A DNA stretch of 64,000 nucleotides from Terriglobia bacterium (lineage in GTDB: Bacteria; Acidobacteriota; UBA6911): assembly GCA_963824985.1 (NCBI GenBank), contig CAWGRQ010000024.1, positions 264,822 to 328,821 on the forward strand. Reading direction: 5' to 3'. Each line of letters opens with the position of its first letter. Position 1 is the first letter of the stretch. This document shows, in pieces, positions 2,443-63,821 of the stretch. The position numbers were made by a program, and so were the translations under genes. The notes under the pieces are model-generated. The model was given only the letters and a program-made list of their open reading frames with translations, was not told the origin of the DNA and ran no database searches.

Positions 2443-5076
2443 CTAGCGCACCAGCGCGTTGAACAGAAATTTATAGGTGCCGTGAGTCTGCGCCCGGTTC
2501 TGGGTCCGGAACCCGATGAGAATCACTTTGCCCTCCCCAAAGGCGATCGAGGCCATGGCCGTCTTGCCGGCAATGTATTTCTCGCCGTTCAGCCAGCCGC
2601 TCCGCTCGACATTGCGATCGGTATAGCGAACGATGATCTGGTTCTTTTCGTTGTGTTCGGTCGCCGCCACATCGAAAGCCGGGCTGTAGTGGAACAGCAC
2701 CAGGGCGTCTTCAGGCATCCCGTATGCCAGGGGATTTGTGGTGTCGACCTTCACACGCAAAGTCGATCCGGGACAGAAGAACTCCTTGGTGCTCAGGCCG
2801 GCCACCACGTTGCGGACCGGCAAGCCCAGCCGGGTGATCGCGAAATCGGTGGCCCCGCCGAGCGTGATCAGGGTGCCGCCCTTGGCCACAAAGTCCCTGA
2901 TCGCGTTCACGCCATCGTTGCCGATGCCGCTCCGGTACTCCGGCGGTGTTGAGTCGGGAACGCCGGCAAATCCGCCGCGGCCCCCTCCGCCCCCTCTGCC
3001 TCCGTCGGGCTCGCCGGTAATGGTGCCGGTGCTGTCGTCCGCAAAGATGAACACATCATAATTGGCGTTGAGATTGCCCTTCCTGATCTCGGCGTCATAG
3101 ACGCTCCTGAACGGGAACATGAACTGCCCTTCAAAAAGAAAGCGCGTCCAGCCCTCGTCCATGTTGCCGCCCCGATAGCGCTGATACATGCCGATCCGCA
3201 GCCGCTTCAGATCGTGGGCCTGCTTCGGCTCCGCCTTCAGCGGGCTGAAATCGACCCCGGTCTGCCTCGCAACATCCGCGACCAACGAATCGGGCGCCGA
3301 CGCCGCCACCAGGAAATCGCCCCGCCGCACGCCGTCTCCATCCCCATCGGCGCGCCGCATCGGCACGTTCCGGTCAAAGAGCAGGTTCATCGCCTTGAAA
3401 GCGTCGTTAAGCCGCCCATCGATAACGTAACCCGCAGGACCCTTGGCCACCTTGCCGGCCGGCTCGATCCGGGTGGCGACCTTCGCAAAATCGGCCTTCA
3501 GCGCCGCGCCCAACGGGTCGGCTTTGATGCCCATGTATTCGGCCAGCACGTCCTGGCCCATGTCATAGGGCCTGATCGGCGTCCCGTCCTGCTGCCGCGT
3601 CCACTCGTTGTCCGGGTAGTGCGTCTCACCCAGCAGGTATCGGATGAGTCCCATCTTGGGCTGTGCCAGCGCCACGTAGAAGGAGCCGGCGGGATAGATC
3701 ACACCGTCCGGCGTGGTGAAGCCTTTGGCGGACTGCATCACTTCGATGCCCTGGTTGAGCATTGCGTTGATCAACTTGTTGAGCGTGAGCGGATCGTTCT
3801 GGCTTGTCGAGATCGCATACGCCGCCGGATTGCCTTTGGCGCCCCGCTCCGTCTGACGGGTCGCCTTCAGATAAGTGTCCCAGACGATGGTTTCGGAATT
3901 GCGCGCCACGCAGTCCAACAGCGCCCAGGCCGCCACCTTCTGGCGCTCGACGATGTCCCGGAGACGCCACCACCCGCCCGGCCACGGATTCGGGAAGTTC
4001 ATCTGTTCCTGTGTCGGGTGCTCGAGGTTGCGCGCCGCGCTCGCGATCTGGCTCGGATCGATGTAGAGCGGAGTGGCCAGCCGCGCGCTCGCCGATTCGG
4101 TCAGCATCCCGGCGATGTTGTGAAACGGGGTGATCCAGTGAAACCCGAAATGGCCCCACCCCGAATACTGGCCGTCATTCATCACCCCCGACAGTCCGGC
4201 CTCTTCCGCCTTGTTCGCCATCTCGGCGCCGTACCACGCCGATTCCCGCCACACCAGAGGATCGGCCAGCGGACGAATCGGCTCCGCGTAGGGCGGGTAG
4301 TAGATCCGCGCGCCATAGCTGCCCATGTGGTGGAAGTCAAAATACGCCTGGGGCTTCCACTCCGTGAACAGCACCTGGCCCGCGTACTGCGACTCCTTCA
4401 TGTTCATCGTAAGGGCATCGCGGTTGTTATCGTGGCCGATATATTTGTTGTACAGCCACGGCGGTCCCGACCCTTCGTATTCGGTCCCGAGATACTTGTT
4501 GTAGAAGTCGGTCACCATGATCTCGCCGTCCGGATTGAAGGAGGGAATGAGCAGGAAGATGACGTTGTCGAGGATCCTCTGCGCCTCGGGATCGGTTCGC
4601 GTCAGGAGGTCGTAGGCGAGCTCGGGCGACATCTGAGCCCCGCCAATCTCGGTGGCGTGCATGCTCATCGTCATCGCAACCAGCGGTCTGCTCGCCGCCG
4701 CAATCTTCCTCGCCTCGGCTTCCGGAATCCCGCGCGGATCGCTGAGCCTGAGATTGTTCTGCCGCAGCGTTTCCAGGTTCTTCAGGTTTGCCGGCGACGT
4801 GAAAATGCACAGGAGGAAGGGATTGCCCATCTCGGTCGGGCCCATGTTGATTACCTTGAGCTTGCCGCCGCTCTCCTTCTCCAGAATCTGGTAGTACTCC
4901 ACCAGCTTATCCCAGCGCGCTATCTTCCGGTCGGCGCCCATCTGGAAGCCGAAGAATTTTTCAGGAGACGTGACCTGGCTCTGCGCCTGAACGTCTTGGG
5001 TCGGGAGCCCTGAACCGGCAAAAGCCAGCGCCAAAATAATGAGAAGCGCCCAGACGACTCTCATTTCCCTGTTCAT
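2443..5076 (-). CDS. M14-family zinc carboxypeptidase, secreted
   Basis: 877-aa ORF with signal peptide (MNREMRVVWALLIILALAFAG). M14 hallmarks: HATE (HxxE zinc site), FNPDGE, GHDNNRD. GGAGGG Shine-Dalgarno sits 7 nt upstream of the ATG at 5076. Confidence 0.75.
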   Translation of the reverse strand: MNREMRVVWALLIILALAFAGSGLPTQDVQAQSQVTSPEKFFGFQMGADRKIARWDKLVEYYQILEKESGGKLKVINMGPTEMGNPFLLCIFTSPANLKNLETLRQNNLRLSDPRGIPEAEARKIAAASRPLVAMTMSMHATEIGGAQMSPELAYDLLTRTDPEAQRILDNVIFLLIPSFNPDGEIMVTDFYNKYLGTEYEGSGPPWLYNKYIGHDNNRDALTMNMKESQYAGQVLFTEWKPQAYFDFHHMGSYGARIYYPPYAEPIRPLADPLVWRESAWYGAEMANKAEEAGLSGVMNDGQYSGWGHFGFHWITPFHNIAGMLTESASARLATPLYIDPSQIASAARNLEHPTQEQMNFPNPWPGGWWRLRDIVERQKVAAWALLDCVARNSETIVWDTYLKATRQTERGAKGNPAAYAISTSQNDPLTLNKLINAMLNQGIEVMQSAKGFTTPDGVIYPAGSFYVALAQPKMGLIRYLLGETHYPDNEWTRQQDGTPIRPYDMGQDVLAEYMGIKADPLGAALKADFAKVATRIEPAGKVAKGPAGYVIDGRLNDAFKAMNLLFDRNVPMRRADGDGDGVRRGDFLVAASAPDSLVADVARQTGVDFSPLKAEPKQAHDLKRLRIGMYQRYRGGNMDEGWTRFLFEGQFMFPFRSVYDAEIRKGNLNANYDVFIFADDSTGTITGEPDGGRGGGGGRGGFAGVPDSTPPEYRSGIGNDGVNAIRDFVAKGGTLITLGGATDFAITRLGLPVRNVVAGLSTKEFFCPGSTLRVKVDTTNPLAYGMPEDALVLFHYSPAFDVAATEHNEKNQIIVRYTDRNVERSGWLNGEKYIAGKTAMASIAFGEGKVILIGFRTQNRAQTHGTYKFLFNALVR

Positions 5077-17711: not shown

Positions 17712-17910
17712 GCCCTTTCACTGTGCCGCCCTTTCAGGGCTCTGGCCAGGTTGATCCCCTGTCCCCAGGGCTCACGCCCTGGGCTTTGCTGCACCACCCC
17801 TTCGGGGTTTTCCCATGGGCGAGATGCTCAGCCCTGAAGGGCGTAATAGCACAGCCCAGGGCGTAAGCCCTGGGCTGAGGTGCCAAGATCTCCAGCCCTG
17901 AAGGGCGGCA
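17712..17910. repeat. Cluster of six GC-rich hairpins with UUCG/GNRA/GAA loops (REP/BIME-like or structured ncRNA)
   Basis: Hairpins: gccctttcagggc (17727-39); cccagggc-tcac-gccctggg (17763-82); cccc-ttcg-gggg (17806-16); cagccctgaagggcg (17828-42 and 17892-17907); gcccagggc-gtaa-gccctgggc (17853-74). The cluster is flanked by 13-bp direct repeats attttcggagcag (17645-57 and 17949-61). Confidence 0.45.
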
Positions 17911-29200: not shown

Positions 29201-29873
29201 CTTCAACCCAAACGGGCAGGACCTGCCGCTTTCGATGCTGGCTCAATATCTCAAACCCGGGGATGGCAGCCTCTGGGCTTTCTATGAAGCCGAGCTGAAA
29301 ATGTTCCTGACCCCGTCGGAGAATCAGTGGGCCGCGTCAACATTGATCGGCGCCCAGGTCGATTTCGCGCCCGGATTTCTCGAGTTTCTGGGACGGGCCA
29401 ATGCCGTGCGTCAGGCCTTGTATGGATCGGGAGGAGCGGACCCGACCATAACCTTCGACCTCACTCCGGAACCGACTCCCGGAATGACGGAAAGCCTGCT
29501 CGATATCGACGGCCAGAAACTCCTGTATCGCAATGAGCGCGCGCTGCCGCAGCCCTTCACCTGGCCGGGTAAATCCGGGTCTCCCCAGGCGAAAATCTCG
29601 ATTTCCATCACCAGCTCGGGCGAGCGCCCCGGCATTCCCACCATCGATGGGGAGTGGGCCTTTTTCCGGCTGCTGGGCCGCGCCAGCGTCGCGCCGCAGT
29701 CGCAGACCGCCTATGGCGTGACGTGGTCGCTGCCAGGCGCCGATGGCCGGAAATTCGATGTCCGTTACCGGCTGCAGGCGAGAAATGTGCAGAATCCGTT
29801 CCTGCCCCAATTCTTCAGCCGGGTCCGGTGCCCGGAGAAGGTGACCCAGTTGCCGTCTTTGTCCCGCTATTAG
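26262..29873 (+). CDS. tssM: Type VI secretion system membrane subunit TssM (IcmF family)
   Basis: 1203 aa. Three N-terminal TM segments. Walker A LGPDESGKTS after LYTLPWILM. Long IcmF-related periplasmic region. Canonical size and position after tssL. Confidence 0.85.
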   Translation: MNPNPQQTPPLPPRPASVTKLFAIASICLAVATAGLWAVDNFLGRDTFKIVLMILLVFLGALIIFWLVLWLFRKLFSAAAASRERRLEEQAAARRQGASPEERAELDGLQEQLNVAVRVLRDSKLAKGKKGDEVLYTLPWILMLGPDESGKTSALRECGVDFPYTTAEGRKPTRGPAPGCDYWFSRGAVMLDLAGRIGAGEEGSETFQGFLDQLKRARKERPLNGVVVTISIADLLHQPADEVERLANRLRHRFDEMIKRLGIRFPIYVLFTKCDQVEGFREFFGNLRSRDRSQVWGATISHAQRKRLSAAQIFSQEYDRLVAELSTYRLPLLASEKNPQNQPLIYTFPTRMAALRERLTSFMSVLLQPTPYSERPMFRGFYMASAAGGPPAEAPVREVPQQWEPGRRFEAEADQPKTAARSYFLETLFPQIFFADRSLATASVDTRLRRRLWLDIAFIGTLALCLTLLVGMIFSFMENRALIEHVRLASLHLADAGWDGRRTTDLMAMEDLHQKVEELDRYQTEGPRWALGWGLYSGNAVNPAARRIYFRRLRDTFVAPTAEVLRRKLNGFASGADSAAAYDDFYTTLKAYLMMTEPQRAEESFLNNALGAPWKGIAARDAEEVALKQLRFYARQLPKNQPELQLTQDADLVARARRALSQFPALVRMYTRLKNEGNAKLPPYTLAIATGGKSLDYMNSSFDVPGVFTEAGWRTYFKNAVAQASQEVIKDDWVLGPTYAYAPSGGISDADYANKILDMYYAEYSDVWSRFLEGVSVRSLADLTEARGALDSFSQQDSALSRLLMNVGAQTMLRRNPEQGGSVTDMVSGALATLGLSTRVNREDLVTAIADQFAPLHDMITSPDGKSPALSAQYVEVIGRIHSKLEALFGAGTQWEQVKAYVGMIATNISGDEFHDGFRVTSRVTQMCRTRSTQPIGSLLEQPLRQSWAAILRDVGYRLDGLWKTRIAETYRRDVESRFPFNPNGQDLPLSMLAQYLKPGDGSLWAFYEAELKMFLTPSENQWAASTLIGAQVDFAPGFLEFLGRANAVRQALYGSGGADPTITFDLTPEPTPGMTESLLDIDGQKLLYRNERALPQPFTWPGKSGSPQAKISISITSSGERPGIPTIDGEWAFFRLLGRASVAPQSQTAYGVTWSLPGADGRKFDVRYRLQARNVQNPFLPQFFSRVRCPEKVTQLPSLSRY

Positions 29874-30034: not shown

Positions 30035-30088
30035 GTAAATCCGTTTCTGCCTCAGTTCTTCAGCCGGGTCCGCTGCCCGGAAAAGAGA
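30035..30088 (+). other. Relic of a second tssM 3' end (48-bp paralogous patch)
   Basis: aatccgtttctgcctcagttcttcagccgggtccgctgcccggaaaag matches 29795-29842 (codons NPFLPQFFSRVRCPEK of tssM). There are 5 differences, all at synonymous third positions. Confidence 0.6.
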
Positions 30089-30096
30089 GCATGGCG

Positions 30097-30147
30097 CCTG
30101 GTTATACTGTCCACACACCACTATGGTATTGGGGCAGTATAACCAGG
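30097..30147. repeat. IR-bounded small repeat element, copy 1 (CCTGGTTATACTGTCC...GGGCAGTATAACCAGG)
   Basis: Terminal inverted repeats of 16 nt (1 mismatch). Same termini as elements at 41752-41793 and 59663-59742. Confidence 0.6.
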
Positions 30148-30242
30148 TAACCGTTCACACGCCGGAGAGTTCCTGCCTCTTCCCGCGCCCGATCCGGCAG
30201 CCGTTATGCGGGTTTTCCGCCGGCTGCTGCGTGACCGTCTAC

Positions 30243-30291
30243 GCCGGGCCAAACTCCTCTCCGAGAGCTTCATGCACAATCTTCTCTCGTG
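30243..30291 (+). repeat. 49-bp dispersed repeat, copy A (inverted partner at 63614-63662)
   Basis: ccgggccaaactcctctccgagagcttcatgcacaatcttctctcgtgg matches the reverse complement of 63614-63662 at 45 of 49 positions. Confidence 0.6.
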
Positions 30292-30459
30292 GATTGAAAC
30301 AGCGACGCTTCGCCGGTGAGGGGCAGTCCCGGGCTGATGAAGGACAGCACCTGGTTTTTACATGATTCCAGATGATTTCAACCCCACCTGGTGCTATTCT
30401 GCGCACTCCAAGAAAAGGTGATTCACAATCTATATTTCACGTGCCTCCTCGGAGACGGT

Positions 30460-33551: not shown

Positions 33552-33593
33552 CAAAGCCTGGAAAGCCTGGACAAAGCCTGGAAATCCTGGACA
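33552..33593. repeat. Left terminus of IS/REPtron-like element: tandem (A)AAGCCTGGA units ending in 16-bp IR CCTGGAAATCCTGGAC (33577-33592)
   Basis: Tandem roughly 10-bp units caaagcctgg / aaagcctgga / aaatcctgga. The perfect reverse complement gtccaggatttccagg sits at 35091-35106. Confidence 0.6.
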
Positions 33594-33665
33594 CCCATTT
33601 TTTGTAATTTTTTCTTGGCACTTTCCATGAGTTCACCAGTTAGATAGTATTGAAAGAGGTGAACC

Positions 33666-34816: not shown

Positions 34817-35090
34817 CCTCTTACGCGCCCAGCAGCCAATCCTCTGCAGACCCGATGCTATCTTCTGACCGCATCGATCCCTTCCAGCAGCATTTGGTAT
34901 TTTCCTACCCGTGACCGTCCTATTGCCCTGATTCCTGCCGACTTGTTTCACCCAACGGTCAGATTCGTCTCCTCCATCCCAGATCGGCGCTTCCCCACGG
35001 AAACTCAGATTCGGATTGGATACAAATGATGAATGCTGGGTGTTTAAGATTGTTGATTTATTTGAGATTTGCAAATTACGAATGGTGGGT

Positions 35091-35133
35091 GTCCAGGATT
35101 TCCAGGATTTTTCCAGGATTTTTCTTCCAGGAG
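35091..35133. repeat. Right terminus of IS/REPtron-like element: gtccaggatttccagg (35091-35106) plus tandem ttccaggattttt units
   Basis: Perfect 16-bp inverted partner of 33577-33592. The tandem copies are a mirror image of the left end. Confidence 0.6.
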
Positions 35134-41701: not shown

Positions 41702-41715
41702 GTATTAAATATAGC

Positions 41716-41733
41716 CATGGCCATGTGGCCATG
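41716..41733. promoter_or_regulatory. Perfect palindrome CATGGCCA-TG-TGGCCATG in the Phd-VapC promoter (candidate autoregulatory operator)
   Basis: 8-bp arms with a 2-bp spacer, 15 nt upstream of the antitoxin start. AT-rich tattaaat adjacent. Confidence 0.4.
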
Positions 41734-41751
41734 TCAATGCAGGAAAGGGCG

Positions 41752-41793
41752 CCTGGTTATAGTGTCCCCGCGTTCAGGGACAGCATAACCAGG
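41752..41793. repeat. IR-bounded small repeat element, copy 2 (CCTGGTTATAGTGTCCCC...GGGACAGCATAACCAGG)
   Basis: Same termini as 30097-30147 and 59663-59742, with 2 mismatches. Confidence 0.55.
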
Positions 41794-41848
41794 CACGCAT
41801 CGCTACTTCAAGGTCACGTTCAGATACACCGAATATCGCCCGTACGTT

Positions 41849-44800
41849 TCATAGAACGGCTTGAAGGCAACGTCCGCCGATTTTGAAACGAAGGGTGCCG
41901 GGATCGCCCGTGATGGATTTCCCGATGTCGCCGGCGTCGAGCGTCACGGGGCGCCAGTCGGTTCGGGGCGCGGACTCTTCGGCAGCCAACAAAACCGGAC
42001 CGTAGAATATGCTGGCGACATTGGGCTGATCCATGACCGGATCCAGATAAAAGTGGAACGGCATCCGGAGTTCGATCGTATCGTTGTCCCGCCAGGTTCT
42101 GCGGAGCGTCAGATAGGTGCCCGGCACGGCTTTGACCGATTGCTCCCGGCCGTTGATCTTGACGAAGAAGCCGCGGGTCGCCCAGCGCGGCACGCGGACC
42201 TTGATGTCGAACTGGCCGCTGCCCTTGAGGACGATCTGGGTCGTATCGGCGTACGGGAAATCGGTGCGCTGCTTCACGACCAGATTGCGCTCGGTCCAGT
42301 TCAGCGTGGATGGAACGAAGAGGTTGACGTAGAGCGTTTTGTCGTCGGCGCCCTTGAAGTAAATGGAATCCTGGAGCTTGGTGCTGCTTTCGAGCGCGGT
42401 GCCGTTGCAGCAGGTGAAACCGCTCATGTTGGCGTTGCCGAAATTGTTTCTGCGAGCCGGGATTGAGCGGGATATGGTAGGTGTTTCCCGCATTGTCCTC
42501 GGCGACGGAAGCGAGAATCTGGTTGTACAGCCCCTGCTCGTAGTGGTCCATGTATTTGGCGGTCTGATCGAACATGAAGAGCTGGCGGTCCAGCTTCAGG
42601 AGATTGTAGGTGCAACAGGTTTCGCACTGCCCGCCGCTGGCGAACCCGTTCTCGAAAAGCGTGTCGGGCTCGGCGGTGAAGCATTCGGCGTTGTTCGGAA
42701 CGCGGGCGCCGGCGACGCCGCCGATGCTGTACATGTAACTGTTGGTCACGATATTCCAGAAATTGTCGGCGATCCGGTAGTAGGGGAATTCTCGCGTGTC
42801 GCGGAAGGTTTCCAGCGCTCCCGTGATCTGCGGGATGTGCATGTTGGCGTGCTTGCCGCGAATCGTATCGACATTCTTGGCCAGGCCGTGATCGTGCTCG
42901 GCGTTGCCGTAGAAGAAATTGATGTTGTCGAACAGCTTGGCGCATTCGAGGAACTGCTGATCTTTGGTGAGCCGGGAGAGGCGCGCCAGGACTTCGTTCA
43001 TGCCGCCGTACTCGCCGGCGATATAACGGTTCCACATGCTGATGCGCGTTTCCGCCGGAAGCGCCTTGAGCCGGGCATAGGCCCAGGATCCCATGTTCCT
43101 GGCGATCTCCAGGGCCTTCTGGTTGCCGCCGACCTCGTAGCAATCGAGCAGGCCGGCGAGGATCTTGTGCAGGGTGTAGTAAGGGGCCCAGATCTGGCGT
43201 GTTCTGGGCGCCGTACGTGGCGCCCTGCTCGAGCATGATGAACTGGTCGGGAGGGTAGGCGCTGATGAATCCCCTGCCCCAGTTCCAGTAATCGGTCCGG
43301 ATGGCATCGGCCCGGAGATTGGAATCGTAGCCGGTACGGCCGGGGCCGGGCGGGACGGCGGTCGGATCGGCATTGAACTCGCCGCCCTCCTTCGCGGGCC
43401 TGCCGGATTTCTGGGAGAGATCGTAAAGGGTATCGATGAGGTAGTTCATCTTCTGGAGGAAATTCGCCCGCAACGTTTCATCGTAGGTCGTGCCGGCGTA
43501 GGCCTGGGCGATGGCGGACAGATAGTGACCGGTGGCGTGGCCGCGCAAGGCGGGTCGTCTGGTTGTCCCATCCACCCAGCGGCTTGACGCCTTCGGGCTG
43601 CTTCTGGCCGAACGCGTCCCTGAAATTGTACAGGAAGTTGTCGGGATTGGTTGTCGCCAGGGTGCGGATGAACTTATCGCGGTTCTTGATGAATTGCGTG
43701 TCGCGCCGCTTGGTGTCCTGCTCCAAAACGACCTGGCCGAGCGGGAACGACTCGACCAGGCGCTCGGGAACGGGCGCGGCTTTCGCGGCCGCTTTCACGG
43801 TCACCGTGGCTTTGGGTTGGAATGGAGTGCCGGGCACCTTGCCGGTCACGGTGTAAATGCCCGGCTTCAGGACCTCGCTATTGTCTTTGGGCGACGGCCA
43901 GACCACGCGGACATCCGGGCCCTTGGCTTTGTTGCGGTACACGGCGGGGATGTTATACGGCAGCCGGGGGAGCTGGCCAATGATCGTCTCGGCCTTGACA
44001 TCGGGTACTGATTCCAATGGGATCGCGGTGGGCAGCACGATTATCCTTCGGGGCCGCAATAACCGGGGGGGCTGGTCTGTTTCCACGGCCCTGACCGCCA
44101 CCGGCACCGGCGGCCTGAGGGCCCGATAAGGCGTTGTTGCGAATCGTGGCCACCTGCTGGTCGCTCAGCGCGATGCGGTAGATGCGGACATCGCGCACTC
44201 TGGCATTGAGGGTGGCATCGGCGTCATTCTGCGAGCGGCCGATGTAGAGGCGGTTCGCATCCGTGGAGGTCTGGTTGAATACATGCGCCGCGTTCACGGT
44301 GACGTTCGTAGCCTGGCCGACCCTGGCGCCGTTGAGATAGCTGGTCAGGGTGCGATTGGGCGGATCCAGCACGACGGCGACGTGGACCCACTGATTCTGC
44401 GGGAATCGTCGCGCCCGTTTGTTCCAACACGCGCTGCAGCGCCGGAGCCGATATAAGCGCGGAAGCCCGCGTCGGGACCGGATTCAGTCAGGACGGCAGA
44501 GAGACTGTTGGAGGCGTTCTGACCGAAATCGAAGAACCGCTGTCCGGTCACATCGGAATTAAGTAAAATCCAGCCCGTGACGCTGATCGTGTCTTCGCCA
44601 GTCAGGGCCTTGCCTGGGAGTTGGACATGGCTGCCATCGCCCGGCAGGTTCAGGACGTTACCGAACCGGCTGTCCTGGACAAAAGCCGCCCCAGACCCAC
44701 GCAGCGTCGCATGCAAGGTGTTCCTCGACCTGTCCTCCGCGTTGCCGTTAAATATATAACGGGCTATGAGGGCGGTTTCGCCGATCCCATCAAGAAACTG

Positions 44801-44901
44801 GTCGCCTCCTCCGACGTTTTGAGCCATCTCTCGCTCCGTAAACGCCGGCGAAACAGTGACTATCGTCAAGACTAAAATAAGGAAGATCCGCATTTTTGTC
44901 A
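41849..44901 (-). pseudogene. Secreted LamG(concanavalin-like)-GH127 (DUF1680, beta-L-arabinofuranosidase-like) glycoside hydrolase, at least 4 frameshifts
   Basis: Signal peptide MTKMRIFLILVLTIV. LamG segment (VRDVRIYRIALSDQQV). GH127 blocks RGHATGHYLSA, HANMHIP, Cys-rich GQCETCCTYNLLKL. Pieces lie in ORFs 44345, 43953, 43478, 42424, 41820 and 41849. Confidence 0.55.
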
Positions 44902-45106
44902 TTATGATTGACCCCGTGATGCATGAAATCGTGAAACACTGAATTTCCGTTCCCAACGGTGCGGGCGGGATCGGGTTTGGAGGGCTCCGCGACGCATCGT
45001 CAGCCAAACTTCGTAACACATAGAGAAAGTAAAAACCAGTCTAAATGGAGGAGTGCGGCCTTTTCTCCATGAATAATCCAGGATCCCGGTGCCGCGCGCC
45101 GGCCAT

Positions 45107-58900: not shown

Positions 58901-59588
58901 GACAGGATCGGCGTTCGCATACGCCATTCCACCCGGCGGCGCGTTCGTGTTCCAGACCGACGGCTCTTCCCCGATCGCGCGCGCCGGTTCGATGATGCTG
59001 ACACCGGATGCGAACACCTCGAGCCCCGCCGGTTCTGCAATGATCGGACTCACGCAGCGCGGGATCCGGGTGACCGAATCGGGCGTGCCCGCCGCGACGC
59101 CCACGACGCACGCGCGCATTTACATCGATACGTCCGGGGGACACAACACCGGCCTGGCGCTCGCCGTTGCCGGCACCACAGGATCCATGATTGCAGTCGA
59201 GGCTTTCCAGGCCGACGGCGTCACCGCCGCAGGCGACGGCATGCATGTCCTCAGGCTCGATCCCCACGGGCACGCGGCGGCATTCGCCGACCAGCTGATC
59301 TCAGGACTGCCGCCGCGTTTCTCCGGCGTGCTGGACATCTACTCGCCGTATCTGCCGTTCGTCGCGCTGACAGTGCGCTCCATGATCAACTCGAGAAGGG
59401 ACTTCCTGCTGACGACATTCCCGGTGGCCGACCTGACCCAACCGGCGCCGGCGCCGGTCATCTTCCCGCAGATTGCCGACGGGGGCGGTTATCGGACGGA
59501 ATTCATCCTTTTAAGCGCAGGCACGGCATCGCGCACGACGATAAGGTTCCACAACCAGACGGGCGCCCCACTGGCGGTCGGCAAATAG
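55955..59588 (+). pseudogene. Large secreted S8 (subtilisin) peptidase with I9 propeptide, C-terminal FG-GAP/VCBS propeller and three beta-sandwich repeats; two frameshifts and one in-frame TAG
   Basis: Signal peptide plus I9 (55955-56491). G-run -1 shift near 56467. S8 motifs VIDTGCDVTHPDL, HGTHVAGT, GTSMAAPHVAG. In-frame TAG at 57685-57687 inside an FG-GAP repeat (DIDRDG*AEIPVG). FG-GAP VDLDGDGRREMIV, MDIDGDGRLEIAW. Shift near 58900. Confidence 0.6.
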
Positions 59589-59662
59589 CGGGGGTGCCGT
59601 ATCTGTATAATCCAGTTTTCGGATTAGAACAGCTCGCATGGACTAGCCCATTAGACTCGGCA

Positions 59663-59742
59663 CCTGGTTATACTGTCCCCTTTGCATCTCGAACAATATC
59701 AACGAGATAGAATGGGGACAGTATGGGGACAGTATAACCAGG
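59663..59742. repeat. IR-bounded small repeat element, copy 3 (perfect 18-bp TIRs CCTGGTTATACTGTCCCC / GGGGACAGTATAACCAGG)
   Basis: 80-bp element. Internal hairpin atctcg...cgagat. Tandem ggggacagtat duplication at the right end. Confidence 0.65.
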
Positions 59743-60059
59743 TACCAAGCTTTCACCATTGCTGATGAAGGCAATTGCCGGGCGGATTCGTCACGTTTTC
59801 CCCATCAGAAGGGGCCAATAATGCCAGCGAGCCTTCGTCCTTTTATCGCCGGCCGGTTATGTACGGGTAGCCGACTATTTGTCCAAGTGGATCGAATGCG
59901 TAAATGGGATTGCTGGTGACAACTTTCCTTGCAGCGCAGCAGATCGTGCCTAAAGCCTAAAACGCATGACGGCGCGCATTTATCGAGCGCATGTCCGATA
60001 AAAGCCGTTTTTATTCTTTTGCCTCAGTCGATAAATAACTTTACAATGTAAAGTCATCC

Positions 60060-62529
60060 ATGTTAAATCCCCAAGATATGTTGAGCAATATCTGGAATGA
60101 CCTGCTTCATGCCGCGCGCTCCCTGGCAAAAGCCCGAGCTTTTACATTTGTGTGCGTGGTGTCGTTGGGAATCGGCATGGCGCCCGTCATCGCGATTCCG
60201 TATGTCGCGCGAGCACTCACAATACAGCCGCCCGGCGTGAAAACCGAGGGACTGGTCGAAATCGACACGACGCGAGTGGGCCCGCGCGCGGCGACCGACA
60301 TTTGGTCTTATCCGGACTACGTCGATCTGCGCGACGCCAATACCGGAACCACGCTTGTGGGCTGGACGTACGGGCAAAGCGAAGTACAAAAAGACTCCGC
60401 GCGGGCAATGTTTGTCTCCACGAACTATTTCCAGACGATCGGCGTGACGCTGTTTCGCGGACCGGGCTTCAGCGCGACTGCCGAGCCTGCCGTGATTCTG
60501 GGATACCGGTACTGGCAGAACCATTTCGCCTCCGATCCGGACATCATCGGCAAGACGCTCACTCTGGACGACGTTCCGCATGTCGTGGCCGGCATCGCTC
60601 CGGAAGGATTTGATGGCCACGTCACTGGGAACGGAGAAGTAGCTGTCTTTCTTCCGCTCGAACGTAATCCGCGTTTTCGTACCGCCGGTGCCGACCGAAG
60701 CAAAGAGTGGGTGCTTATCCACGGACGCCTGATGCCCGGAGTCAGCGTGGCGCAGGCGAGCGCGGCCGTTTCCGCGGTCACATCGTCGTTGGCCAAACAG
60801 TATCCGTCGACGAACGAGAACAGGTCCGGCATCGCCGCCCCGTATGACGCATACGGCAATCTCGTGAAGTCGCGGCTTGCCGTCATTCAAGCGCTCGGGC
60901 TGACGCTGACCGGAATGATATTGCTGGTTGTGTGCCTGAATATCTCCGGCATGGTGCAGGTTCGCAGCGCGATGCGCGAGCGGGAACTGTCCATCCGCCA
61001 GGCGATCGGCGCCACGCGCCGGCAGCTGATCCAATATCTGTTGAGCGAAGCGATCATCATGGCCGGTCTTGGAGCGATCCTCGCGTCGCTCGTTTTGTTC
61101 AACCTTCCGTCGCTACGGTCACTGTTAACCGACGACCCGCTTCCGCCACAGGTGCAAGAGGTACTGAAAGTGAATCTGCCGACGGTCGGGTTCGCTGTGG
61201 GACTCTGCCTCCTGACCAGCCTCGTGTTCGGATTGCTGCCGGCCGTTCGCTTCAGTCGCCCGGTGATCCTCTCTGCCTTGAAAGACGATGTGGGCGTCGG
61301 GGGGCGGCGCGTAGGTCGAGTTCAGCGCGTGGCCGCGGCGTTGCAGGTTGCGATCGCGGTTCCGTTGATCGTGATGAGCGGCATCTCGCTCGATCGCGTC
61401 CGCGCCACCGCAACCGCCGACCTCGGATTCGCAGCGGACCTCTTGTACGCCGTGCCGTTGAAGGTCGACGACGCCAAGATCGCGAACGCGGATTCCCGAA
61501 TCCGCAGCGTCCGAGACGATCTCGCCAAGGCAGACGGTGTTGCCGCCGCAACTCTCGCGGACGGCCTGCCGCTGGATAACCGCGGTCACGGCGCGCGTAC
61601 CGCGCTGCAGCCGGAAGCGAACGAGGCGCCGAAGTTCGTTCATAGTTCACGTCACGCGCGTGGACAACGACTATCTGAACACGATGGGCATCCCGCTTTT
61701 GCGTGGCCGCGGTTTCGCGGCAGACGATCGAGCGGGCACGGAACTCGTCACCATCATTTCGAAGACGCTCGCCGAGAAACTCTTTCCGAATGCTGAAGCC
61801 GGCCAGGCGATCGGCAAGCGATTGATCTTCGGCAACGATGAAAAGACGACGCAGACGCTCACGGTTGTAGGTGTCAGCGGCGATTTCCCGACCGCGCAAA
61901 TGAGCTCGCCGCGAGAGCAGTTGCTGTTGCCGCTCGCGCAGCAACCGTCTCAGGAGCTGTTCCTGATTGCGCGCAGCAGGCCTGGCGAACCGCCACAGAA
62001 AATGACCGCGACGCTTGAAAAGGCGGAACGCGATTTCAATCCGGAGAACCGCGGCTTCGGATACGGCGACGACGGGGCGACTTACCCCACTGTGGTCACG
62101 GGAGTGTGGCTGCGGAAGAACAGCATGGACGACTTCCTGAGGGAGTCGGCCGTCGCGGCTGTCGCAGGCAGCGTCATCCTGACGCTGTCGGCGCTTGGAA
62201 TCTACGGCGTCGTCGGGTTGATGGTCGCGACACGTACGCGCGAGCTTGCGGTGCGCAGCGCGCTGGGCGCCTCGCGACGCCGCGTGCTTGGCATGGTCTT
62301 GTTCGACGTGGTGAAACTCGTGCTGCCCGGCGTGGTCGTCGGACTCATTCTCACGGCCGCGTTCATCCGCCTCAACGGCGAAAACATGGGCATCCCGCTC
62401 AGCAACGTGGAGTACCTGTCGTACGTCGTGGGCGCTGCGGTTGCCGTGCTCGTCGCGGTCGTCGCGAGCCTCGCTCCGGCCCGCCGCGCCGCCTCAGTCC
62501 AACCCATGGTCGCCATGCGCTCGGAATAA
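60060..62529 (+). CDS. MacB-like ABC transporter permease (two FtsX domains), one frameshift near 61644
   Basis: N-terminus MLNPQDMLSNIWNDLLHAARSLAKARAFTFVCVVSLGIGMAPVIA is typical of Acidobacterial MacB-like permeases. MacB periplasmic domain, then FtsX TM bundles. The frame switches between ORFs 60060 and 61537 at gttcatagttcac. Roughly 823 aa total. Confidence 0.65.
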
Positions 62530-62531
62530 AA

Positions 62532-62553
62532 GCGGATCGAATTACAGATCCGC
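62532..62553 (+). terminator. Hairpin gcggatc-gaattaca-gatccgc directly after the permease stop
   Basis: 7-bp perfect stem, 8-nt loop, 2 nt after the TAA. Weak downstream U-tract (aacgtttc). Confidence 0.35.
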
Positions 62554-62933
62554 AACGTTTCAAAACCTATCCAACGGCCTGCAAGCGCTGAAAAATGCCG
62601 CGTCCGCCGTCATCGATCTCTTGTCGTTTTCACGCGGCCCCATGAACTGCAGATACCCGTACTCCAGAACCAAGTCGAACTCTACAACCTCTGTTCCGGA
62701 GGCGGAGACGCTCGCGATCCGAAACACCAGTGCGGTTCCCCTGGAACCACGAAAAGCGGTTCACCCGCGAAATGTCGCCCGGCGTTTACCCACTGCGAGC
62801 GCGTCCTGCTCTCAGTTGTCGTATAACGGCCAAACCGGACAGAACCCGGCAAAGGATGCTGGGGAGGGGTTTTTGTACGGTAAGCGGACATAACCGGCCA
62901 AAATCCCGACTCTGAAAGTGCTAGAATCGATGT

Positions 62934-63613: not shown

Positions 63614-63662
63614 CGGATGTACCCACGAGAGTAGATTGTGCATGAAGCTCGCGGAGAGGCGT
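63614..63662 (-). repeat. 49-bp dispersed repeat, copy B (inverted partner of 30243-30291)
   Basis: See copy A. 45 of 49 identical in reverse-complement orientation. Confidence 0.6.
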
Positions 63663-63821
63663 TCGGCCCGGTGCAATCGTTGTCTGTCAAACATCCAGAA
63701 AATAGAAACTTCTGAACCTCACACCCCTTTTGGCCATCCAATGATATGCAATTTCCGTAGTATCCTGGTGCGCAGCCATCATGTCAGATATTGTGGCGGC
63801 TTTGCCGCCGTGGAGCCCGAT

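Follow-up and report, generated by a model that had tools for sequence, protein, structure and literature searches.

Three palindromic repeats and their surroundings

The window, by which we mean the whole 64,000-nucleotide stretch of Terriglobia bacterium DNA analyzed here, contains among its genes a tssM gene, a GH127 (beta-L-arabinofuranosidase-like) gene on the minus strand (41820-45054), a Phd-VapC pair, and a MacB/FtsX permease gene (60019-62560). Three copies of a small palindromic repeat, referred to as copies 1 to 3, lie close to these genes at 30097-30147, 41752-41793, and 59663-59742. A search with the 18-mer CCTGGTTATACTGTCCCC gave six matches at two or fewer mismatches, which form three inverted pairs, against an expectation of 0.02 half-sites from dinucleotide shuffles. 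The three arm-sharing copies described by an earlier, sequence-only reading of this DNA are thus borne out, and the arm common to all three hairpins is CCTGGTTATACTGTCCC. A search of the 64-kb window with R1, a covariance model of the wider family, recovered the three copies at E values of 1e-8 to 1e-15 and nothing else credible; the next-best match was an unrelated palindrome at 17.5 bits. The individual features are collected in Table 1.

Table 1. Palindromic repeats of the window and associated features (window coordinates; paired bit scores refer to the two strands).
Feature	Position	Strand	Remarks
tssM 3'-end relic (90% to 29793-29840)	30038-30085	+	Truncated at the copy 1 boundary
Copy 1, most decayed	30086-30159		One arm with 1 mismatch, the other with 2; outer stem lacking; R1 43.5/38.3 bits
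Copy 2, ~66-nt CAVTZY-type subfamily unit, GGAAAGGGCG-palindrome-CACGCATCGCT	41740-41805		R1 54.7/53.6 bits
Copy 3, whole hairpin unit with outer stem	59651-59754		R1 62.7/61.0 bits
Copy 3, left arm CCTGGTTATACTGTCCCC	59663-59680	+	Exact match
Copy 3, loop with its own small hairpin, ATCTCG-N11-CGAGAT	59681-59713		Unique; resembles no other copy
Copy 3, tandem GGGGACAGTAT x2	59714-59735	+	Partial duplication, inner end of right arm
Copy 3, right arm, reverse complement of left arm	59725-59742	-	Exact match

Copy 3 lies 74 nt past an open reading frame at 58947-59588 (+) and 317 nt ahead of the MacB/FtsX gene. Its perfect 18-nt arms and its internal tandem, both pointed out by the sequence-only reading, could be read directly from the letters. 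Complementarity between the arms extends to 25 nt at 92% (59656-59680 / 59725-59749), and the RNA fold has a predicted energy of -48.2 kcal/mol on the plus strand and -55.3 kcal/mol on the minus strand, with z-scores of -8 and -9. Partial arm duplications also occur in two loci of other genomes, L016 and L014; within the loops of all three elements, they are consistent with slippage at the hairpin tip.

The intergenic region of copy 3 also contains, at 59860-59905, a motif of ~45 nt (TGTACGGGTAGCCGACTATTTGTCCAAGTGGA...) that is shared with positions 7213-7256 of contig L142, where it sits beside a DDE_Tnp_1 transposase gene; it may be the relic of an IS end. The MacB/FtsX gene itself is 91-96% identical at the nucleotide level to genes in three unrelated contigs (L142-L144). 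This similarity begins ~40 nt before the start codon and stops just past the stop codon, and the flanks are unrelated. In the window, the reading frame is split into 578 and 330 aa, compared with ~816 aa in full, which suggests a frameshift or an assembly error.

Copy 2 starts immediately at the GH127 stop codon. It is the orthologue of an element at 1095-1159 of locus L029, from the metagenome-assembled genome (MAG) CAVTZY01, and its unit was also found in L026, in L036 (twice), and in L051. The GH127 gene of the window consists of overlapping broken open reading frames; it is intact in L029 and encodes 770-1050 aa in its homologues, suggesting, as with MacB, either indel errors or pseudogenization. 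The sequence-only reading had placed copy 2 before the Phd-VapC promoter, and the element does lie 15 nt upstream of the -35 box; the promoter and its operator palindrome (41708-41737) are, however, separate from it. This near-consensus promoter, TTGACA-18-TATATT, is on the minus strand ahead of the Phd-VapC pair, and the palindrome between its hexamers, CATGGCCACATGGCCATG (41716-41733), is probably the antitoxin operator.

Copy 1 starts 11 nt after the 48-nt relic of the tssM 3' end and folds with predicted energies of -38.2 (+) and -33.6 (-) kcal/mol. The relic lies 245 nt downstream of the original sequence, and its reading frame enters copy 1 and ends at a TAA in the right arm. Approximately 100 nt downstream of copy 1 is one half of a 49-nt inverted match (92%; 30244-30292 / 63623-63671), the partner of which is 33 kb away. 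Further along, 49-nt inverted repeats (86%) at 33562-33610 and 35073-35121, with short repeats of the CCTGGA/AAGCCTGGA type, stand 1.46 kb apart and enclose open reading frames; this pair may be an insertion sequence.

Consensus, distribution and inheritance of the family

To define the unit, all copies of the wider family were listed with their flanks. The full unit reads (A)n-TCGGTA-CCTGGTTATACTGTCCC-(loop of 0-57 nt)-GGGACAGTATAACCAGG-TACCGA-(T)n. The arms that the sequence-only reading described as 16-18-bp terminal inverted repeats are present, but they do not delimit the unit, which is larger: on each side, the family consensus continues outward as TAC-S-G-W-T-T and a T-rich tail. The logo of the half-site is RGGGACAGTATAACCAGG-TAC-S-G-W-T-T, also written as R-GGGACAGTATAACCAGG-TAC-S-G-W-T-T followed by the T-rich tail. 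Positions that the search pattern had left free are 93-99% conserved. TA adjoins the arms on both sides in ~95% of the copies, C at +3 is conserved at 0.99, and conservation reaches +8. The frequency of T at +7 to +11 runs from 0.86 through 0.69 to ~0.45, against a background of ~0.23, and copies from CAVXIH01, CAVRAD01, DATJPG01, and JBBISO01 show T enrichment from +6 to +12 on both sides.

The stem measures ~23-28 bp overall, with a median inner stem of 18 bp, 7 bp of outer stem, and a median loop of 12 nt (range 0-57). Folding the elements as RNA, as the sequence-only reading had suggested, gave stable hairpins throughout, with ΔG values of -30 to -60 kcal/mol (median -44) and z-scores of -5 to -12. 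In an alignment of 39 sequences, 88.6% of the cells pair, and the outer stem and two inner positions contain compensatory pairs (e.g., AU:11/UA:9, CG:18/GC:5, and AU:32/GC:4). The covariation score of 0.083 compares with 0.056 after shuffling; it was matched by none of 500 shuffles and lies above all slid registers. Across 497 kb, 122 arms were paired and none was solo at up to three mismatches, and the arm pairs keep one polarity throughout. The loops, already noted to differ in length between the window copies, are unrelated between copies in both sequence and length.

To determine how widely the repeat occurs, we scanned one genome per species (185,579 species) with a two-arm pattern, CCTGGTTATNNTG-N7..67-CANNATAACCAGG, which specifies 22 bases and captures all three window copies. 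The scan returned 56 loci, 51 of them in five Acidobacteriota MAGs and five as singletons in unrelated phyla, the latter being about the number (~4-5) expected by chance for 22 specified bases. CAVXIH01 carries ~30 strict copies over 12 contigs (at least 3.9 Mb), DATJPG01 11, CAVRAD01 8, CAVTZY01 4, and JBBISO01 3. In the scanned loci of these five MAGs, all elements lie outside long open reading frames, and R1 adds just two decayed copies, at 3966-4034 of L036 and 3632-3696 of L053. Viral contigs gave no two-arm match and five 16-mer single-arm matches, each lacking the partner arm.

The closest relative of the window is CAVTZY01. Positions 1095-4382 of L029 are 88.6% identical to window positions 41742-45054, and copy 2 is therefore orthologous between the two. 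The sequence-only reading had taken a restriction to three copies, with no conservation in related genomes, as the mark of a coincidence or a local artifact; the 51 loci and the orthologue of copy 2 contradict this. Close protein homologues of the window genes carry Acidobacteriota or Vicinamibacterales labels, while exact-protein look-ups with the MacB and TssM of the window found no match on record. No Rfam family matched the elements, for which only sub-threshold matches to generic hairpins (miRNA precursors) were returned, and among the papers searched none had the arm sequence in a relevant context. The family is thus a real, lineage-restricted, REP-like palindromic repeat of uncultured soil Acidobacteriota, apparently undescribed so far.

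Outside this lineage, a 46-nt perfect palindrome, TAGGTACCTGGTTATAGTGAAATTATTCACTATAACCAGGTACCTA, in the Halanaerobium MAG JBHEOV01 (L041 6786-6831) has 17 nt in common with the arm and scores 52 bits with R1. It belongs to a different phylum, has a different center, and sits in the divergent promoter between hemA and an FTCD-like gene. It may be unrelated, the resemblance being a coincidence, or may reflect a shared recognition motif.

Comparison of the copies with one another points to two modes of propagation. A unit of ~66 nt, gAAAAtCGGTA-CCTGGTTATACTGTCCCTCCGAGAAAAAGGGACAGTATAACCAGG-TACCGATTGyT, occurs in eight near-identical copies in CAVXIH01 and one in CAVRAD01. These copies, which read gAAAAtCGGTA-...CCGAGAAAAA...-TACCGATTGyT, occupy unrelated loci in both orientations. 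What they share continues, asymmetrically, for another 10-11 nt outside either arm. A second ~66-nt unit, which has a loop of its own and ends that are not symmetric, is common to CAVTZY01 and the window. From their sequences, we take the ~66-nt units to be footprints of whole-unit copy-and-paste spread. The target-site duplications for which the sequence-only reading had proposed to look were not visible at the true unit ends of the nine-copy subfamily.

On the other hand, inheritance of the element appears mostly vertical, because it is present in all members of four orthologous pairs of CAVXIH01 and CAVRAD01 (91-96% identity) and of the window/L029 pair. Between orthologous copies, the arms differ at 6 of 170 positions, four of these in one decaying copy, and the loops differ by indels and substitutions. 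A search for empty sites through the relatives of MacB, GH127, and tssM yielded no clean filled/empty pair: the MacB homologues present a 91-96% identical gene in unrelated contexts, the GH127 orthologues have unrelated DNA directly past the stop codon, and the tssM relatives have a convergent metW 8-12 nt past the stop, with no synteny beyond.

The proximity to rearrangement scars remarked on by the sequence-only reading holds more widely, as the elements often stand where homology between related genomes breaks. Homology ends at the edge of an element in the comparisons of the window with L029, of L044 with L048, and of L018 with L050, and copy 1 follows the tssM relic. Such breaks are partly expected in compact genomes, where breakpoints must be intergenic. 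In L018 (~3100-3160, reverse complement; CAVRAD01), a tandem array of ~7 units of the 7-mer TTCCAGA/TTCCGGA comes right after a stop codon, and DATJPG01 (L050) has in its place the palindromic element and an extra gene.

Gene context and comparison with known repeats

With respect to the flanking genes, crude open reading frame calls placed 20 elements between convergent genes, 21 between tandem genes, and two between divergent genes (chi-square p=5e-4). By the same calls, the elements are typically 5-16 nt past a stop codon. In the convergent cases, a stop codon is a median of 14 nt away, and 8 of the 20 elements have both stops within 20 nt; in the tandem cases, the upstream stop is the nearer one in 15 of 21. 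The T-rich tails are found on both strands. A regulatory palindrome bound by a protein, which the sequence-only reading had also considered, is unlikely given this preference for sites after stop codons, the 20 convergent versus two divergent contexts, and a placement outside promoters.

The neighbors themselves are ordinary genes, exemplified by AFOR, an aldo-keto reductase, and DinB_2 between and around the three copies of L020. All-against-all BLASTP of the open reading frames in the 51 loci revealed no recurrent neighbor family and no transposase-like family adjoining the elements, nor did a recombinase gene recur beside them in these loci. In more distant relatives, the stop codon of the GH127 orthologues is followed at once by small hairpins of unrelated sequence, and their occurrence at this same place suggests that the element occupies a terminator slot.

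The family resembles the REP/REPIN elements of Enterobacteria, Pseudomonas, and Stenotrophomonas in several respects. These are likewise short extragenic palindromes present in tens to hundreds per genome, found at gene ends and between convergent genes, forming hairpins, lacking target duplications, and inherited mostly vertically, with a population made up of a few identical "master" copies and variants (PMC3733652, PMC3116915). In REP/REPIN elements, one end of the palindrome is marked by a conserved tetranucleotide, GTAG or CGTC (PMC3733652). In contrast, our logo contains neither tag, and the ends read ...TCGGTA-CCTGG / CCAGG-TACCGA.... Moreover, a REPIN consists of two inverted REPs, each a small palindrome, whereas the acidobacterial arm has no internal palindrome beyond GGTACC and never occurs solo; the unit is one hairpin instead of a REP doublet, with a much longer stem (23-28 bp) and free loops.

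The RAYT-like TIRYT genes of Acidobacteria offer a second comparison within the same phylum. Di Nocera et al. (2013) described these genes as flanked by TIRs with the motif GGGGWSAS, which occur as singles, dimers, or clusters, and the inner end of our arm, GGGGACAG, fits this motif (PMC3733652). A tblastn search with seven RAYT/TIRYT seeds, covering the window and the 51 loci (~0.5 Mb, a part of the host genomes), gave no match. Likewise, 80 metagenomic loci of the acidobacterial TIRYT group, which is distinct from the aba1552 and aba2776 types, contained no arm and no R1 match; they carry GGGTGCCCC-type TIRs instead. In the material covered, a RAYT/TIRYT link found no support. The TIRYT genes of L062-L141 have inverted repeats based on GGGTGCCCC(A/C)GGTC... 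on either side, at distances of 13-100 nt; some of these are 40-50 nt long and hairpin-forming, and this repeat system is separate from the arm family.

Acido-Lenti-1 (Rfam RF01687) is also a small hairpin repeat of Acidobacteriota, and the window contains an inverted pair of matches to it (17764-17809 (+) and 17830-17874 (-), spanning to 17874 from 17764, within the region 17727-17909). Its sequence is unrelated, however, and R1 scores it at just 17.5 bits. GCCCTGAAGGGC-type small hairpins surround the pair, in what looks like a second, unrelated REP-like cluster. Integron attC sites were rejected as well. The element reads GTTATAC...GTATAAC, the opposite order to the core sites R'' (RYYYAAC) and R' (GTTRRRY), with one mismatch to each consensus, and the copies are dispersed over at least 12 contigs beside ordinary genes and not arrayed by intI/attI.

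Competing explanations and proposed role

The sequence-only reading had raised the possibility of a mobile, MITE-like hairpin. A dispersed family bounded by inverted repeats, with eight near-identical ~66-nt units plus one at unrelated loci, did emerge; a classical MITE did not, for want of a target duplication, of related interiors, and of a parent IS. As a full explanation, a classical MITE would make the arms the TIRs for a DDE transposase (e.g., IS630/Tc1-like), the TA a target duplication, and the loops the remnants of deleted interiors, and we regard it as improbable. The TA on both flanks in ~95% of copies, the small, dispersed, TIR-bounded form (its arms measure 17-18 nt, or as much as ~26 nt when the outer stem is counted), and the DDE transposase and IS-end-like relic near a homologous MacB locus, with the relic also at 59860-59905, all speak for it. 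However, conservation runs past the TA (C at +3, then S/G/W/T/T onward to +8), sequence common to the young subfamily extends 10-11 nt outside the arms, with no duplication at those true ends, the interiors are unrelated and as short as 0-3 nt, and no arm pair in 497 kb is spaced more than 150 nt apart, so that no parent IS is seen. In Neisseria, Correia elements (CREE) affect transcription and RNA processing. Like them and other IS630-type MITEs, the acidobacterial elements are small, TIR-bounded, and have TA at both ends, but Correia elements have interiors of 100-150 bp that are conserved, and their TA is truly duplicated, whereas the interiors here are unrelated between copies and conservation continues past the TA. 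The homology breaks and the truncation of the tssM relic at copy 1 could instead mean that the element is a place where a host protein, such as a site-specific recombinase or a factor tied to the nucleoid or to replication, binds or recombines the DNA, that is, a symmetric dimer site promoting changes in gene order, with the terminator look being secondary. An arm sequence held constant, beyond the needs of pairing, across distantly related MAGs would suit such a site, the symmetric "compensatory" changes are as compatible with a dimer site as with a hairpin, and stability shows no strand bias. Nevertheless, half-sites spaced by anything from 0 to 57 nt would not be tolerable for a fixed dimer site, intergenic breakpoints are expected anyway in compact genomes, no recombinase gene recurs next to the elements, and attC-type core sites are not in the right order; we therefore consider this reading rather unlikely.

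Two further explanations accept the placement at gene ends. Ordinary terminators that resemble one another through shared gene ancestry or local duplication, with no mobile or trans-recognized family behind them, would account for the terminator-like position and anatomy and for the vertical inheritance of orthologous copies. The flanking genes are unrelated, though, as seen for the eight CAVXIH01 copies and the one in CAVRAD01, and ordinary terminators do not have an identical stem of 17-25 nt in common over five MAGs, with 30 loci or more per genome, which makes this explanation very unlikely. Pairs of DNA-uptake sequences, such as the terminator-doubling DUS/USS inverted repeats of Neisseria and Pasteurellaceae, are also sequence-specific motifs in inverted pairs at gene ends. 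DUS/USS number ~1,000-2,000 per genome, mostly single and often inside genes. Here, by contrast, no solo half-site was found at up to three mismatches in 497 kb, and just ~30 copies are present in at least 3.9 Mb of CAVXIH01 contigs, leaving this possibility extremely slight.

Taken with these considerations, the reading that we prefer, and hold to be reasonably likely, is that the palindromic repeat is REP-like and passed on mostly by vertical descent, and that it serves as a (bidirectional) terminator or as a hairpin at 3' ends. Transcription of the unit from either side would yield a highly stable RNA hairpin with U-rich sequence behind it. Its anatomy and position suggest that the hairpin would serve the flanking genes both as a bidirectional intrinsic terminator and as a hairpin protecting their 3' ends, since it is located after stop codons, is symmetric in its A-tract, stem, and T-tract, and is highly stable. 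Bidirectional intrinsic (Rho-independent) terminators are similarly composed of an A-tract, a GC-containing stem, and a T-tract and lie between convergent stops. In contrast to them, the stem sequence here is common to all copies and two to three times the usual length, and no good U-tract follows the window copies. Stems of 23-28 bp far exceed the length that an ordinary terminator requires, and a simple terminator scan called none of the three window copies, as the threshold of at least five T in 8 nt was not reached; both points argue against the terminator role. With U-tracts that are weak or missing, the window copies are older, degraded members of the family and probably weak terminators or relics. 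A test for selection at the RNA level likewise lends the terminator role no support: the sense strand is more stable in 16 cases and the antisense strand in 10, a difference that is not significant (p=0.33).

The arms may additionally be recognized by a sequence-specific protein, because their sequence is identical across MAGs whose genes are just ~76-78% identical or not alignable at the DNA level. The most plausible recognizer would be an enzyme copying the element in the form of a single-stranded hairpin. Such an HUH/RAYT-like single-strand mechanism is favored because target duplications are absent. Slippage or template switching at the hairpin tip could then generate the variability of the loops.

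A bolder version, which we offer as speculative and unlikely, is that the arms are the site of a non-RAYT protein occurring in several Acidobacteriota genera. This protein would copy the element as a "portable two-way terminator" or would process or cleave the hairpin, and the elements would be preferred junctions for gene gain, loss, and reshuffling. If so, a protein-processed hairpin would also explain the hypervariable loop, and the family would be more than another REP: a novel type of module, mobile and domesticated, for termination and recombination.

For the terminator or 3'-end hairpin that we prefer, the significance depends on the partner. If a cognate protein exists, the design of constant arms and variable loops would allow the recognition and maintenance of palindromic repeats to be studied in a clean system; without one, the family would be one more lineage-specific REP-like family. 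Acidobacteriota are abundant in soil and have almost no genetics, and the repeat would be useful in them as an annotation marker of operon boundaries and terminators, for strain typing, for marking assembly breakpoints, and, as a portable hairpin, as a candidate terminator part.
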